A DNA stretch of 64,000 nt from the sequence record NC_054914.1. The stretch is one strand, 5' to 3'. Below, piece after piece: positions 2,512 through 61,517 of the stretch. A program made the position numbers and the translations under genes. The notes under the pieces were generated by a model. That model had not been told where the DNA came from, searched no databases, and worked only from the letters and a program-made list of their open reading frames with translations. Every line of letters starts with the position of its first letter. The first letter of the stretch is position 1. The stretch is from Escherichia phage vB_EcoM-fFiEco06.

Positions 2512-4136
<1,625 letters not shown>

Positions 4137-51981: not shown

Positions 51982-54900
51982 ATGGCCGAGATTAAAAGAA
52001 AGTTCAGAGCAGAAGATGGTCTGGACGCAGGTGGCGATAAAATAATCAACGTAGCTTTAGCTGATCGTACCGTAGGAACTGACGGTGTTAACGTTGATTA
52101 CTTAATTCAAGAAAACACAGTTCAGCAATATGACCCAACTCGTGGATATTTAAAAGATTTTGTAATCATTTATAATAATCGTTTTTGGGCAGCAACGGAT
52201 AATATTCCAAAACCTGCTGGAAATTTTAATAGAATTCGTTGGAAAGCATTACGTACTGATGCCGTATATACAACCGTATCATCTGGACCATATCAATTAA
52301 AATCCGGAGAAGCAATTTCAGTAGATACATCAGTTGGCAATGACATTGAGTTTACTTTACCACCTTCTCCGCTTGATGGAGAAACCGTAATAATTCAAGA
52401 TATCGGTGGAAAACCTGGCATAAATCAGGTTAAAATAAATTCTTCAAATCAGAGTATTGTCAATTTTAGAGGTGAACAGGTACGTTCAGTTTTAATGACT
52501 CATCCAAAGTCACAGATGGTATTCATTTTTAATAATCGTTTGTGGCAAATGTATATTGCTGATTATAGCAGAGAAGCTGCGATTGTTACTCCATCGACTG
52601 CATATCAAGCACAATCTAATGATTTTATCGTACGTAGATTTACTTCTGCTGCACCAATTAATGTTAAACTTCCGAGATTTGCTAATCATGGCGATATTAT
52701 TAATTTCGTTGATTTAGATAAACTGAATCCACTTTATCATACAATTGTTACTACATACGATGAAACGACTTCAGTACAAGAAGTTGGAACTCATTCCATT
52801 GAAGGCCGTACATCGATTGACGGTTTCTTGATGTTTGACGATAATGAGAAATTGTGGAGATTGTTTGACGGGGATAGTAAAGCACGTTTACGCATTATAA
52901 CAACTAATTCAAATATTCGTCCAAATGAAGAAGTCATGGTATTTGGCGCGAATAATGGAACAACCCAAACAATTGAACTTCAGCTTCCGACTGATATTTC
53001 TGTTGGTGATACTGTTAAAATTTCCATGAATTACATGAGAAAAGGACAAACAGTTAAAATCAAAGCTGCTGGTGAAGATAAAATTGCTTCTTCAGTTCAA
53101 TTGCTGCAATTCCCAAAACGTTCAGAATATCCGCCTGAAGCTGAATGGGTAACAGTTCAAGAATTAGTTTTTAACGGTGAAACTAATTATGTACCAGTTT
53201 TGCAACTTGCTTATATAGAAGATTCTGATGGAAAATACTGGGTTGTACAGCAAAACGTTCCAACAGTTGAAAGAGTCGATTCTTTAAATAATTCTACTAG
53301 AGCAAGATTAGGCGTAATTGCTTTAGCTACACAAGCTCAAGCAAATGCTGATTTAGAAAATTCTCCGCAAAAAGAATTGGCAATTACTCCAGAAACGTTA
53401 GCTAATCGTACTGCTACAGAAACTCGCAGAGGTATTGCAAGAATAGCAACTACTGCTCAAGTGAATCAGAACACCACATTCTCTTTTGCAGATGACCTTA
53501 TCATCACTCCTAAAAAGCTGAATGAAAGAACTGCTACAGAAACTCGCAGAGGTGTCGCTGAAATTGCTACGCAGCAGGAAACTAATACAGGTACTGATGA
53601 TACTACAATCATTACTCCTAAAAAGCTTCAAGCTCGCCAAGGTTCTGAATCATTATCTGGTATTGTAACTTTTGTATCTACCGCAGGAGCTACTCCAGCT
53701 TCTAGTCGTGAATTAAATGGTACGAATGTTTATAATAAAAACACTAATAATTTAGTTGTTTCACCTAAAGCTTTGGATCAGTATAAAGCTACTCCAACGC
53801 AACAAGGCGCAGTAATTTTAGCAGTTGAAAGTGAAGTAATTGCTGGACAAAGCCAAGAAGGATGGGCAAATGCGGTTGTAACGCCAGAAACGTTACATAA
53901 AAAGACATCAACTGATGGAAGAATTGGTTTAATTGAAATTGCTACGCAAAGTGAAGTTAATACAGGAACTGACTATACTCGTGCAGTCACTCCTAAAACT
54001 TTAAATGACCGTAGAGCAACTGAAAGTTTAAGTGGTATAGCTGAAATTGCTACGCAAGTTGAATTCGACGCAGGCGTCGACGATACTCGTATCTCTACAC
54101 CATTAAAAATTAAAACCAGATTTAATAGTACTGATCGTACTTCTGTTGTTGCTCTATCTGGATTAGTTGAATCAGGAACTCTCTGGGACCATTATACCCT
54201 TAATATTCTTGAAGCAAATGAGACACAGCGTGGTACACTTCGTGTAGCTACACAAGTTGAAGCTGCTGCAGGAACATTGGATAATGTTCTAATAACTCCT
54301 AAAAAGCTTTTAGGTACTAAATCTACTGAAGCGCAGGAAGGCGTTATTAAAGTTGCAACTCGGTCTGAAACTGTAGCTGGAACGTCAGCAAATACTGCTG
54401 TATCTCCAAAAAATTTAAAATGGATTGTGCAGAGTGAACCTACTTGGGCAGCGACTACTGCGATAAGAGGTTTTGTTAAAACTTCGTCTGGTTCAATTAC
54501 ATTCGTTGGTAATGATACAGCTGGTTCAACACAGCCATTAGAATCATATGAGAAAAATGGTTATGCAGTATCACCATATGAATTAAATCGCGTATTAGCA
54601 AATTATTTGCCGTTAAAAGCAAAAGCCGTAGATAGTAATTTATTAGATGGTCTAGATTCGCTCCAGTTCATTCGTAGGGACATTGCACAAACAGTTAATG
54701 GTTCACTAACCTTAACCCAACAAACGAATCTGAGTGCCCCTCTTGTATCATCTAGTACTGCTACATTCGGTGGATCAGTTTCAGCAAATAGTACATTAAC
54801 TATTTCTAATACTGGAACGGCAACTCGTCTGATTTTTGAGAAAGGACCTCAAACTGGAACAAACCCGGCTCAAACGATGACAGTCAGAGTGTGGGGAAAT

Positions 54901-55851
54901 CAATTTAGCGGGGAATCAGACACAACACGTTCTACCGTATTTGAAGTTAGTGATGAAACGTCTAGTCATTTTTATTCTCAGCGTAATAAAGCTGGAAATA
55001 TAACATTTAATATCAACGGTACAGTAACACCGATAAATGTTAATGCTTCAGGAACATTGAATGCAAATGGTGTAGCAACATTTGGTAATTCAGTCACTGC
55101 AACTGGTGAAATTATTTCTCGAAGCGCAAATGCTTTCCGTGCTATTAACGGAAATTATGGTTTCATTGTTCGCAATGATGGGTCAGTAACGAATTTTATG
55201 CTTACTGCATCGGGTGATCAAACTGGCGGATTTAATGGATTGCGTCCTTTAGCTATTAATAATGCATCTGGCCAAGTAACGATTGGTGAAAGCTTAATCA
55301 TTGCAAAAGGTGCTACTATAAGTTCGGGTGGTTTGACTGTTAACTCGAGAATTCGTTCTCAGGGTACTAAAACCTCTGATTTATATACCCGTGCGCCAAC
55401 ATCTGATACAGTAGGATTCTGGTCAATCGATATTAATGATTCAGCCACTTATAACCAGTTCCCGGGTTATTTTAAAATGGTTGAAAAAACTAATGAAGTG
55501 ACTGGACTTCCATACTTAGAACGTGGTGAAGAAGTTAAATCTCCTGGTACATTGACTCAGTTTGGTAACACACTTGATTCACTTTACCAAGATTGGATTA
55601 CTTATCCAACGACCCCAGAAGCACGTACCACTCGCTGGACACGTACATGGCAGAAAACCAAAAACTCTTGGTCAAGTTTTGTTCAGGTATTTGACGGAGG
55701 TAACCCTCCTCAACCTTCAGATATAGGAGCGATCCCATCTGATAATGGAATAATAGGTAATCTTACTATTCGCGATTTCTTGCGAATTGGTAATGTTCGC
55801 ATTATTCCTGACCCAGTGAATAAAACTGTTAAATTTGAGTGGATTGAATAA
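51982..55851 (+). CDS. 34: long tail fibre proximal subunit gp34 (1289 aa)
   Basis: Length identical to T4 gp34; internal tandem repeats. Confidence 0.9.
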   Translation: MAEIKRKFRAEDGLDAGGDKIINVALADRTVGTDGVNVDYLIQENTVQQYDPTRGYLKDFVIIYNNRFWAATDNIPKPAGNFNRIRWKALRTDAVYTTVSSGPYQLKSGEAISVDTSVGNDIEFTLPPSPLDGETVIIQDIGGKPGINQVKINSSNQSIVNFRGEQVRSVLMTHPKSQMVFIFNNRLWQMYIADYSREAAIVTPSTAYQAQSNDFIVRRFTSAAPINVKLPRFANHGDIINFVDLDKLNPLYHTIVTTYDETTSVQEVGTHSIEGRTSIDGFLMFDDNEKLWRLFDGDSKARLRIITTNSNIRPNEEVMVFGANNGTTQTIELQLPTDISVGDTVKISMNYMRKGQTVKIKAAGEDKIASSVQLLQFPKRSEYPPEAEWVTVQELVFNGETNYVPVLQLAYIEDSDGKYWVVQQNVPTVERVDSLNNSTRARLGVIALATQAQANADLENSPQKELAITPETLANRTATETRRGIARIATTAQVNQNTTFSFADDLIITPKKLNERTATETRRGVAEIATQQETNTGTDDTTIITPKKLQARQGSESLSGIVTFVSTAGATPASSRELNGTNVYNKNTNNLVVSPKALDQYKATPTQQGAVILAVESEVIAGQSQEGWANAVVTPETLHKKTSTDGRIGLIEIATQSEVNTGTDYTRAVTPKTLNDRRATESLSGIAEIATQVEFDAGVDDTRISTPLKIKTRFNSTDRTSVVALSGLVESGTLWDHYTLNILEANETQRGTLRVATQVEAAAGTLDNVLITPKKLLGTKSTEAQEGVIKVATRSETVAGTSANTAVSPKNLKWIVQSEPTWAATTAIRGFVKTSSGSITFVGNDTAGSTQPLESYEKNGYAVSPYELNRVLANYLPLKAKAVDSNLLDGLDSLQFIRRDIAQTVNGSLTLTQQTNLSAPLVSSSTATFGGSVSANSTLTISNTGTATRLIFEKGPQTGTNPAQTMTVRVWGNQFSGESDTTRSTVFEVSDETSSHFYSQRNKAGNITFNINGTVTPINVNASGTLNANGVATFGNSVTATGEIISRSANAFRAINGNYGFIVRNDGSVTNFMLTASGDQTGGFNGLRPLAINNASGQVTIGESLIIAKGATISSGGLTVNSRIRSQGTKTSDLYTRAPTSDTVGFWSIDINDSATYNQFPGYFKMVEKTNEVTGLPYLERGEEVKSPGTLTQFGNTLDSLYQDWITYPTTPEARTTRWTRTWQKTKNSWSSFVQVFDGGNPPQPSDIGAIPSDNGIIGNLTIRDFLRIGNVRIIPDPVNKTVKFEWIE
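53299..54427 (+). repeat. tandem ~40-residue repeats within gp34 (motif ...TE.RRG.A.IAT..E.N.GTDDT..ITP.KL...), with DNA-level repeats such as ACTGCTACAGAAACTCGCAGAGGT
   Basis: Repeated peptide motif seen at least six times; near-identical 24-nt DNA segment twice. Confidence 0.7.
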
Positions 55852-57696: not shown

Positions 57697-60681
57697 ATGG
57701 CTACTTTAAAACAAATACAATTTAAAAGAAGCAAAACTGCAGGTCAACGTCCTGCTGCTTCAGTATTAGCCGAAGGTGAATTGGCTATAAACTTAAAAGA
57801 TAAAACAATTTTCACAAAAGATGACTCAGGTAGTGTTATAGAATTAGGTTTAAAATATGGAGGAACAATTGATGGTTCTTTAACTGTTAATGGAAATATA
57901 ATTGGAAATTTAACAGGTAACGCTGCAACTGCAACGAAATTAAAAACAGCACGAAAAATTAATGGTATATCCTTTGATGGGTCAAAAGATATCACGCTAA
58001 CTCCATCTGACATAAATGTCAATAGCACAACGTTTATAAAAAATAATGGCGAATTACCTGTTGATGCTAATTTAGATACGTATGGGCCTGTTGAAGAATG
58101 TCTTGGAGTTTGGTCGAAAGCAACTTCAACCAACGCTCAACCAGCAAATAAATTTCCAGAAGAAAATGCTGTAGGTGTGCTAGAAGTATTTGTGGCCGGT
58201 CAATTTGCTGGTACTCAGAGATATACAACTAGATACGGAAATGTTTATATTCGTTCCTTGACTGCTACATGGAACGGAGTAAATGGTCCGTGGAGTGTGT
58301 GGCGAAATATTCAATCTGGTACTCGTCCACTGTCAACAACAATTGATCTTAATGATCTAGGAGGCGCTGAACACTTTGGTTTGTGGCGAAATAGTTCAAA
58401 TTCCATTGCTACCTTTGACAGAAATTTCCCAGAAGAAGGATCGTCCGCTCAAGGACTTTTAGAAGTATATGAAGGTGGAAACTATTCTCGCACACAGAGA
58501 TATACGACCAGATTTGGTGTTGTTTATACTCGTTGTCTTACTGCTGCGTGGGATGCTTCTGCGCCTAAATGGGGACCTTGGCAACAAGTCGGTAATGTCA
58601 CACCGGCGACTTTCTATGACGGAGATCTGAATGATTTTAAAACTCCTGGGTTATATAATATTTTAGGCACTGATGCCGTTATTAACTGTCCTACCGGTGA
58701 AGGTTTGCCGACTGTTATTGTTGGTTTGCTGGAAGTTAAACAGCGTGCTTCTGGCGGTGCTATTTTCCAAAAATTTACTACTGCCGGAACGGGTGCAACT
58801 ACTCGCGATCGTATTTTTGAGCGTGCATATACTGGTGGTGTGTGGGGTGCATGGAACGAAGTATATACATCTTATTCTCTTCCAATTACTTTGGGTATGG
58901 GTGGTATTAAAGCTCAATTAGCGGAGTTAGATTGGCAAACCTTTGATTTTGTTCCTGGTAGTATGTTTAGCGTTCCTTTGAACAAAATAAAGAACATGCC
59001 AGCAAATATGGATTGGGGGACGATTGACGGAAACCTGGTTATGTTTTCCGTTGGTCCTAGCGAACACACTAGCACAGGGCGTACTGTTCAGGTTTGGCGC
59101 GGTACTGTATCCCAGACAAACTACCGTTATTTTGTCGTTCGTGTGTTCGGTAATTCTGGAAATAGAACTTGCACAGTCCGCCGTGTTGTTCTTGAAGATG
59201 GTCGCCACACATGGACAGCTCAACAAGATTTTAATGGTGCTGTTAACTTCGGTGCTCCTACCAATTTTAACTCTACTGTTAACCTTAATAACACTACCAC
59301 ATTTAAAACAGAAGTTAAATTCCGCTCATCTAATGCATTCCGTATGTATGGCGGAAAATTTGGTACAATTTTCCGTAATGATGGAGAGAGTCTTTATATT
59401 CTTTCCACCGACGAAAATGATCAAGATGGAAACTTTAATACAAATAGACCTTTCCGTTATGAATTAAGAACTGGTGATGTTACTTTGGGTGGTACTAGTG
59501 GTGCTAACGTTTTAAAATTAAAACGCGATTCTCTCACCGCATTTTTTGGTGGTGATATTAATATAAAAGGCTTGATGACTTTTGATGCCGGACGTTTAGG
59601 ATCACGAGATTATTTTAAATTTAACCATTGGGGTGATAGTAATAATGCGCGCGATAACATTATTCAGTTAGAAGACAGCAAAGGCGTTCATTTTTCCACT
59701 GAACGTACTTTAGCGACTGGTGCAATTAAAACTAAATTCTTTGGTGAAGTTGAATCCGAAGGTAGATTGATTATTAAACGTCCGGGTGATTCTATTGTAT
59801 TATCAACAACTGCTGGTAATGCTTTGCATATTCGTGGTGACGTAGACGGGAGTGGTAACTGGTATATTGGTAAGGGTGGTGCTGATAATTCGCTAGCATT
59901 TTATAGCTATGCTACTCAGGCGGCAGTACATATCACAAACAATGGTGAGATTTCGCTAAATCCACAAAATATCGCAATGGTTAACGTTAACCGCGATCGT
60001 GTACACATTAACGGTTCTGGATGGATTGCTAGACAACCGGGTGATTGGGGCAACCAATGGCGAGTAGAAGCTCCATTATTCGTCGATCATGGTTATGTTT
60101 CACAGGATTGTTATTATCCAATTATTAAAGGAAGAAGTGTAATCACCAATCAAGGGTTTGTAACTGCCGTCGATCTTGGTATTCGTCGTGTCCCTAACAA
60201 TTGGGGGCAAGCAATTATTCGTGTTGGATCTGCAGAGGCATCGCCAGCGGCTGGACACCCTAACGCGGTATTTGAATTTCATTACGACGGTACTTTCTAT
60301 TCTCCTGGTAATGGTAACTTTAACGATGTGTATATTCGTTCCGATGGTCGTCTTAAGATTAATAAAAAAGAGCTAGAAAACGGAGCACTTGAAAAAGTAT
60401 GTCGACTGAAAGTTTATATTTACGATAAAGTTAAGTCTATTAAAGACCGTAGTGTTATTAAACGTGAAGTTGGTATTATTGCTCAGGACCTTGAAAAGGA
60501 ATTACCGGAAGCTGTATCTAAAGTTGAAGTTGATGGATCTGATGTTCTGACAATTTCTAACTCTGCTGTGAATGCTCTTTTAATTAAGGCTATTCAGGAA
60601 ATGAGTGAAGAAATTAAAGAATTGAAAACGCCTCTCTTTACTAAAATTGCTCGCAAAATTAGTAAATATTTTAAATTCTAA
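57697..60681 (+). CDS. 37: long tail fibre distal subunit gp37 (994 aa), T2-type with C-terminal intramolecular chaperone-like domain
   Basis: Position/size; N-terminus conserved with T4 gp37; C-terminal SDGRLK motif. Confidence 0.9.
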
Positions 60682-60687
60682 CAACAA

Positions 60688-60702
60688 GGGGGAAATGCCC
60701 CC
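60688..60702 (+). terminator. GGGGG-AAAUG-CCCCC hairpin + UUU after gene 37
   Basis: 5-bp G/C stem read directly. Confidence 0.55.
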
Positions 60703-60716
60703 TTTGGAGTATAATT

Positions 60717-61517
60717 ATGGCAGTAGTTGGTGTTCCTGGTTGGATTGGAAGTTCAGCCGCAAATGAAACAGGACAGCGCTGGATGAGTCAAGCGGCTGGT
60801 CAATTAAGATTGGGTGTTCCTTGCTGGATGAGTCAATTTGCAGGTCGCTCACGAGAAATTATTCACACCCTTGGAGCGGACCATAACTTCAATGGTCAAT
60901 GGTTCCGAGATAGATGTTTTGAGGCAGGTAGTGCACCTATAGTGTTTAATATTACCGGAAATTTGGTATCATATTCTAGAGACGTTCCTTTATTCTTCAT
61001 GTATGGAGATACACCTAATGAATATGTTCAGTTGAATATTGGTGGCGGCGTCCATATGTGGGGTAGAGGTGGACAAGGTGGATGGACCCATTCCGGCGGA
61101 GATGGTAATGGTCAACAAGGTGGTCATTGTATTCAAAATGACATCGGTGGACGATTAAGAATTAATAACGGTGGAGTAATTTGTGGTGGAGGTGGAGGTG
61201 GAGGTGGTATCGCTTATCGTCCTCACTCTGGTGCAAATTGGCAAGATATTGGTGGTGGTGGAGGAAGACCATTTGGCCCAGGAGGAGGCGGAGGTTATTC
61301 CGGCGGCGCAGCTTCTTATGATGGCCCAGGAGGTGGTTATAATTATGGTAATGCTCACTCTGGCCAGGGTGGTGATGCTGGCGCAAATGGACAAAATGCC
61401 TGGTATGATGGCGGTAAAGTTCTAAAAGTTGGAGCTGGTGGCGCTGCCGGATATGCTGTTATAGGATCAGCTCCAACATGGCAAAATGTTGGAGTAATAT
61501 ATGGTCCAAGGGTATAA
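60717..61517 (+). CDS. 38: gp38 receptor-binding adhesin (T2/T6 type, glycine-rich motifs), 266 aa
   Basis: Conserved N-terminal domain followed by Gly-rich motifs and variable segments; between 37 and t. Confidence 0.8.
61035..61451 (+). repeat. glycine-rich motif region of gp38 (GGG.., GGGGGGGG, GGGGG, GGGGG runs separated by variable segments)
   Basis: Poly-Gly runs in translation; GGT/GGA/GGC codon runs in DNA. Confidence 0.8.

Follow-up and report, generated by a model that had tools for sequence, protein, structure and literature searches.

The distal tail fiber protein gp37 of Escherichia phage vB_EcoM-fFiEco06 ends in a Peptidase_S74 intramolecular chaperone that is probably cut off just before its catalytic serine

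Does the distal subunit of the long tail fiber, gp37, carry its own folding chaperone at its C-terminal end, and, if so, at which bond would the chaperone be released? The question arises in a 64,000-nucleotide stretch of Escherichia phage vB_EcoM-fFiEco06 (sequence record NC_054914.1), all of which we refer to as the window. The window contains a T-even long tail fiber operon made up of gp34 (51982-55851), gp35, gp36, gp37, gp38 and holin t. Genes 37 and 38 are 99.9% identical to those of Escherichia phage vB_EcoM-fHoEco02, a Tequatrovirus (MG781191), whose record labels gene 37 only as 'long tail fiber, distal subunit' and leaves its S74 domain unannotated. An initial annotation of the locus, made from the sequence, had proposed that roughly the last 112 residues of gp37 form a self-cleaving chaperone that follows a serine encoded at 60340-60342. 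These positions are right: in the gp37 translation this is the codon of Ser882, and 112 codons separate it from the stop, beginning with Asp883 (60343-60345), extending over 60343-60678 and followed by the stop codon at 60679-60681. Around the predicted junction the protein reads NDVYIR-S882-D-G-R-L-K887. The features on which our analysis bears are listed below, all on the plus strand, with their basis in parentheses where one applies.

57697..60681, plus strand: gene 37, long tail fiber distal subunit, a 994-residue precursor (open reading frame list; PHROG 1699 'long tail fiber protein distal subunit'; DNA 99.9% identical to fHoEco02 HE2_254).
57697..60339, plus strand: predicted mature gp37, residues 1-881 (cleavage position in homologues).
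60322..60339, plus strand: segment N876-D-V-Y-I-R881, predicted to become the C-terminus after cleavage and to serve as the docking tip for gp38 (junctions of relatives; S16 structure as described in PMC7917993).
60340..60342, plus strand: Ser882, predicted catalytic nucleophile; the bond before it (60339|60340) is the predicted site of cleavage (Pfam S74 position 1; conservation).
60355..60357, plus strand: Lys887, at Ser +5, predicted to act as general base in the Ser-Lys dyad (conservation; spacing in homologues).
60340..60678, plus strand: intramolecular chaperone (Peptidase_S74) domain, residues 882-994, 113 residues, predicted to be released.
60559..60669, plus strand: long C-terminal helix of the chaperone domain, residues 955-991, a probable trimeric coiled coil (AlphaFold model helix 104-140; coiled-coil role by analogy with MyRF and endoNF).
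60717..61517, plus strand: gene 38, T2-type tail fiber adhesin, predicted to cap the processed gp37 tip (Pfam; PDB; tryptophans).

Profile comparison, predicted fold and conserved catalytic residues identify the C-terminus of gp37 as a true Peptidase_S74 intramolecular chaperone (IMC) domain. The HMM search suggested as a check in the initial annotation finds Pfam Peptidase_S74 (PF13884, 'chaperone of endosialidase') at residues 882-940 (E 5.3e-11), with a score of 43.1 bits against a gathering cut-off of 22; the match spans profile positions 1-57 of 58 and places Ser882 at position 1. When a profile of gp37 relatives was compared with the PDB, it matched gp37 of phage S16 (6F45_A, E 4.7e-11), the tail fiber 8JOV and the ICA domain of eukaryotic MyRF (7DC3, 2e-4), with the GA-1 neck-appendage chaperone 3GUD as a marginal match (E 0.29). 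In an AlphaFold monomer model of residues 852-994 (model residue 1 corresponds to gp37 residue 852), the domain forms a small core of helix and beta-sheet followed by one long helix, with a mean pLDDT of 78 that rises to 85-93 across the domain core. The part of the fiber upstream of Ser882 is poorly modeled in the monomer (pLDDT 50-58), and its beta-helix context is putative. The 12 best Foldseek matches of this model in the PDB are all IMC or ICA domains, namely chains of MyRF (7DC3), GA-1 (3GUD), endoNF (3GW6) and T5 pb1 (4UW8); the best, 7DC3, has an E-value of 1.3e-5 and a TM score of 0.64 for the monomer model.

Relatives of the domain are numerous. When 1.84 billion representative proteins were searched exhaustively, 3259 came up at E <= 0.001, and tblastn located the domain in 1341 phage records, including those of T5-like L-shaped fibers, KVP40, cyanophages and pneumococcal hyaluronidase/PblB proteins. 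A word-indexed protein search gave 23 rather closely related proteins, most of them labeled as partial or as short, a set that serves for a shallow alignment and does not capture diversity. We assessed conservation in a 173-row alignment of these 23 and the best 150 representatives of the 3259. The serine is present in 163 of 164 aligned relatives, the following aspartate in all 164 and the lysine at +5 in 164 of 165, while arginine occupies Ser +3 in 148. The relatives are 86 to 2682 residues long; in them, the median distance from this serine to the C-terminus is 99 residues, with a 5-95% range of 93-117, and S74 matches lie near the C-terminal end in almost all of the 25 PHROG profiles listed. 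At 113 residues from Ser882 to its end, the gp37 chaperone falls inside the range of about 95-135 for IMC domains. By itself, the short motif is weak evidence, because translating the window in six frames yields 21 instances of S-D-x3-K, one of them in gp37; the profile match is decisive. The signature to which the initial annotation had pointed, S-D-x-R-x-K, is indeed present in gp37, its single occurrence in the whole window, although S-D-x-R-L-K is the better form of it.

The window thus holds the domain itself, its catalytic residues, its predicted fold, its C-terminal position, its gp38 neighbor and its homology to processed fibers. We place the probability that residues 882-994 are the C-terminal IMC of the Peptidase_S74 family, a self-cleaving chaperone for fiber folding, at roughly 0.9. 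The proposal of a chaperone-like domain at the end of gp37 is therefore borne out by Pfam, PDB profile, Foldseek and conservation alike, with the adjustment that the domain most likely begins one codon earlier than had been noted, at 60340, so that Ser882 is included.

This adjustment bears on the bond that is cut. The initial annotation had placed the cut after Ser882, with about 112 residues set free, and this is probably wrong, since the evidence from MyRF, T5, K1F, S16 and GA-1 favors a cut before the serine. On this evidence, the cut in gp37 is most likely R881|S882 (60339|60340), which would release a chaperone of 113 residues and not 112. In MyRF, mass spectrometry places the cut at P586|S587, where S587 is the equivalent of endoNF S911. 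The serine departs with the chaperone in T5 and K1F and is missing from the mature fiber, and the GA-1 chaperone chain (3GUD_A) begins with SDERHK. The Pfam S74 model likewise begins at the serine. A cut on the other side, S882|D883, would involve the same domain and mechanism but would free 112 residues and leave a tip ending in VYIRS. The literature does not agree throughout on which side of the serine is cut: in phi29 gp12 the serine is modeled as the last mature residue, which is the sole opposite case and one with weaker density. The abstract of Schwarzer et al. 2007 is also said to describe the domain as cleaved off 'after' a conserved serine. Against this stand the mass spectrometry of MyRF, the fate of the serine in T5 and K1F, the start of the GA-1 chain and of the Pfam model, and the S16 gp37 site, which is given as DLNVS^SDRRIKK in PMC7917993. 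For Yersinia fPS phages, Salem et al. 2021 give the cut at DVYIR^SDGRLKI, by the same mechanism (PMC7917993). We therefore consider cleavage after the serine unlikely and retain R881|S882.

How would such a domain act? We propose that three precursor chaperone domains would trimerize through the small beta-sheet and helix core and the long C-terminal helix, and that the resulting trimer would nucleate folding of the intertwined distal fiber from its C-terminal end. Once the fiber had folded, the Ser882-Lys887 dyad would cleave the polypeptide, R881|S882 being the most probable bond, and the 113-residue chaperone would then dissociate. The homologues follow this course: their chaperone domains trimerize and nucleate fiber folding, a Ser-Lys dyad then cuts, and the chaperone leaves. 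The equivalent dyads are S911/K916 in endoNF, S1264/K1269 in T5 and S587/K592 in MyRF, with identical +5 spacing. It is from homologues that we infer cleavage of gp37 in this phage, the bond cut and the docking of gp38 on the exposed tip, the binding of gp38 in particular from the S16 structure and T2 genetics.

In two of the homologues, cleavage is tied to folding through a sensor arginine (endoNF R897, T5 R1250), which lies 14 residues before the serine, comes from the neighboring chain and senses correct folding of the beta-helix. We looked for an arginine at -14 from Ser882 in the gp37 translation and found none, this position being Tyr868; the nearest upstream arginines are R881 (-1), whose position holds arginine in 122 of 161 aligned relatives, and R842 (-40). 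Because gp37 has no arginine at -14, its cleavage trigger may differ from that of endoNF and T5. MyRF is also without the sensor arginine, and the coupling of folding to cleavage is not universal. The same departure from the canonical spacing could be taken to mean that the domain is present but uncleaved in this phage and is kept on the virion fiber as a structural cap. Several observations make this very improbable: the motif as a whole, with its Ser-Lys dyad, is intact and varies hardly at all, the homologous T2 and S16 fibers are processed (PMC3157838, PMC7917993), and gp38 needs an exposed tip, as the S16 structure is described in PMC7917993. Self-cleavage thus remains the preferred reading for gp37.

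The family name has encouraged a different idea, in which the S74 domain would make gp37 a peptidase or a capsule depolymerase that acts on the host. Related records carry names such as 'tail protein and peptidase', and, among several genome papers that already note S74 on T-even distal fibers, one misreads it and names an S74-bearing long tail fiber a 'putative depolymerase' (PMC8022965). In every characterized case, however, the S74 domain cuts only its own chain, it is discarded before infection, and a Pfam search of gp37 turns up neither a glycosidase nor a lyase domain. We rejected the idea of a host-acting enzyme, to which we attach next to no probability.

The predicted tip is followed directly by the gene for its expected partner. 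Gene 38, immediately downstream of gene 37, encodes a protein that contains the glycine-rich GP38 domain (PF05268, 8e-69) and Gp38_N (PF21721, 1.5e-19), and its residues W9, W22 and W37 line up with S16 gp38 tryptophans, which, according to PMC7917993, insert into pockets on the gp37 tip. The suggestion that gp38 is the partner of gp37 accordingly fits a T2-type adhesin directly downstream, with a Gp38_N domain and three aligned tryptophans. Its closest solved relatives are PDB 9V85 and S16 gp38 (6F45_D). The former, a GFP-gp38 fusion (2.4e-72), is nearer than S16 gp38 and provides the structure of a near-homologous adhesin for receptor modeling. A GGGGG-AAATG-CCCCC hairpin (60688-60702) is situated after the stop codon of gene 37 and before the Shine-Dalgarno sequence of gene 38 (GGAG, 60706-60709). 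With a z of -1.4, its fold energy is unremarkable, a terminator scan at this site matches the opposite strand only, and one related phage record annotates a terminator at the same position.

Across 59 IMG/VR loci that code for relatives, the junction could be read in 57, and VYIR directly precedes the serine in 53 of these (VYIR^SD); the VYIR residues are also common in the 173-row alignment. A downstream open reading frame with the gp38 N-terminal domain is found at 40 of the 53 VYIR^SD loci, and gp38 was not detectable at the other 13, so a VYIR tip does not always mean gp38.

Part of the gp37 sequence is shared with fibers outside this operon type. Its distal half (residues 536-980, 59302-60636) is 55% identical to the fiber encoded in one IMG/VR contig (UViG_2548876867_000017, here L007), and the N-terminal halves are unrelated, which marks a clear mosaic joint inside gene 37. 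Within gp37, residues ~140-400 (58100-58900) comprise two or three repeated knob-like segments, the third weaker, and residues 106-325 are matched by the PHROG family 'tail collar fiber protein'. One of the repeats holds a second, unrelated VYIRS, at gp37 residue 183; considered as a cleavage site, it was rejected, as no D-x3-K follows it and it sits in a repeated segment. At the other end of the protein, a basic tail (residues 978-994, 60628-60678) extends beyond the chaperone helix. Only the closest relatives (P0001 and P0002) have this tail, which T2 and most homologues lack; two small L007 open reading frames also end in YFKF-containing tails, which is probably coincidence.

In the place of gp38, L007 encodes three tandem paralogous proteins of ~100 residues (2965-3261, 3264-3569 and 3569-3871), and L008 and L009 are likely to be arranged in this way too. 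The three have in common M-x-x-W at the N-terminus and an FDIPNG[WY] motif, and they directly follow a fiber nearly identical to gp37 over the last ~110 residues before the cut. We found no Pfam or PHROG match for them and no convincing alignment to gp38_N; they may be alternative tip proteins. A T-even-like distal fiber with an NDVYIR^SD junction and an S74 chaperone is also encoded in L012 and in 23 more contigs of ~5-45 kb among L015-L038. A lambda-like tail tube protein accompanies it in small contigs (checked in L012 and L007), which makes them candidate siphovirus-type prophages, and the fibers of ~35 kb contigs with such a tail tube protein are nearly identical to gp37 over the ~110 residues before the cut. 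In L012 (3613-4119) and other small contigs, a protein of 168-178 residues is encoded ~670 nt downstream of the fiber, behind the tail tube gene, and contains a Gp38_N domain only (PF21721, 1.9e-15; PHROG 1121 'tail fiber adhesin'). A similar open frame of 178 residues directly follows the fiber in contigs of ~176-180 kb (L043, L044, L049 and L052). Because the tips are near-identical and the downstream open reading frames in small contigs differ, movement of the tip together with its chaperone, and a choice of caps, are suggested. We speculate, as a rather doubtful but possible extension, that NDVYIR, the S74 chaperone and a Gp38_N protein make up a portable tip cassette exchanged between T4-like myoviruses and ~20-38 kb contigs with a lambda-like tail tube protein, and that the VYIR tip may also accept other, undescribed caps such as the L007 proteins (2965-3871).

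The finding of a chaperone in gp37 is correct but already known, and the exact junction was published by Salem 2021 (PMC7917993). That T2 gp37 is processed at its C-terminus was already known in 1986 (Drexler, Riede and Henning, as cited in PMC3157838). What our analysis contributes is a clean annotation and a one-residue correction of the cut. An annotation of the domain and of its likely cut at R881|S882 indicates the true C-terminus of the virion fiber and the surface where gp38 would sit, which is relevant to engineering the host range of T2-type phages and to modeling of the fiber tip. It also corrects the labels 'tail protein and peptidase' or 'depolymerase' on S74-bearing fibers. The domain family itself was reportedly published by Schwarzer 2007 and Schulz 2010.

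Comparison with known systems places gp37 among closely and more distantly related fibers. The nearest counterparts are gp37 of the Yersinia fPS phages (PMC7917993) and of fHoEco02, which have an identical DVYIR^SDGRLKI junction, the same predicted IMC and a downstream gp38 adhesin; between fHoEco02 and the window there is essentially no difference. T2 gp37 shares the junction in the form NVYIRSDIRLK, with 46% identity over 125 residues. It differs in its length of 1341 residues and in its serine, which lies 99 residues from the end, without the extra C-terminal tail of the window protein. The initial annotation had cited C-terminal processing of T2 gp37 in its favor, and both this homologous junction and the literature agree with it: according to Trojet 2011 (PMC3157838), which cites Drexler 1986, T2 and T6 gp37 are cleaved at the C-terminus and then capped by gp38.

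The S16 gp37-gp38 tip (PDB 6F45, Dunne et al. 2018) is alike in its S74 IMC at the gp37 C-terminus, the match already noted at 4.7e-11, and in a gp38 that combines a polyglycine adhesin with a tryptophan-bearing N-terminal attachment domain. Autocleavage in S16 exposes the docking tip, as stated in PMC7917993. The S16 tip before the cut is DLNVS and that of the window DVYIR; the upstream fiber domain also differs (PMC7917993), and when the two IMC regions are aligned pairwise, they have only about one aligned residue in three in common. At a greater distance, K1F endoNF, the T5 pb1 L-shaped fiber, GA-1/phi29 gp12 and MyRF have the same fold, a Ser-Lys dyad at +5, a C-terminal position and, as is known in these homologues, self-release after trimerization, whereas their upstream proteins are unrelated to gp37. 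gp37 also differs from endoNF and T5 in not having their sensor arginine at -14. In T5, moreover, receptor binding falls to the fiber tip itself, which carries no further adhesin, whereas the processed tip of gp37 is predicted to receive gp38.
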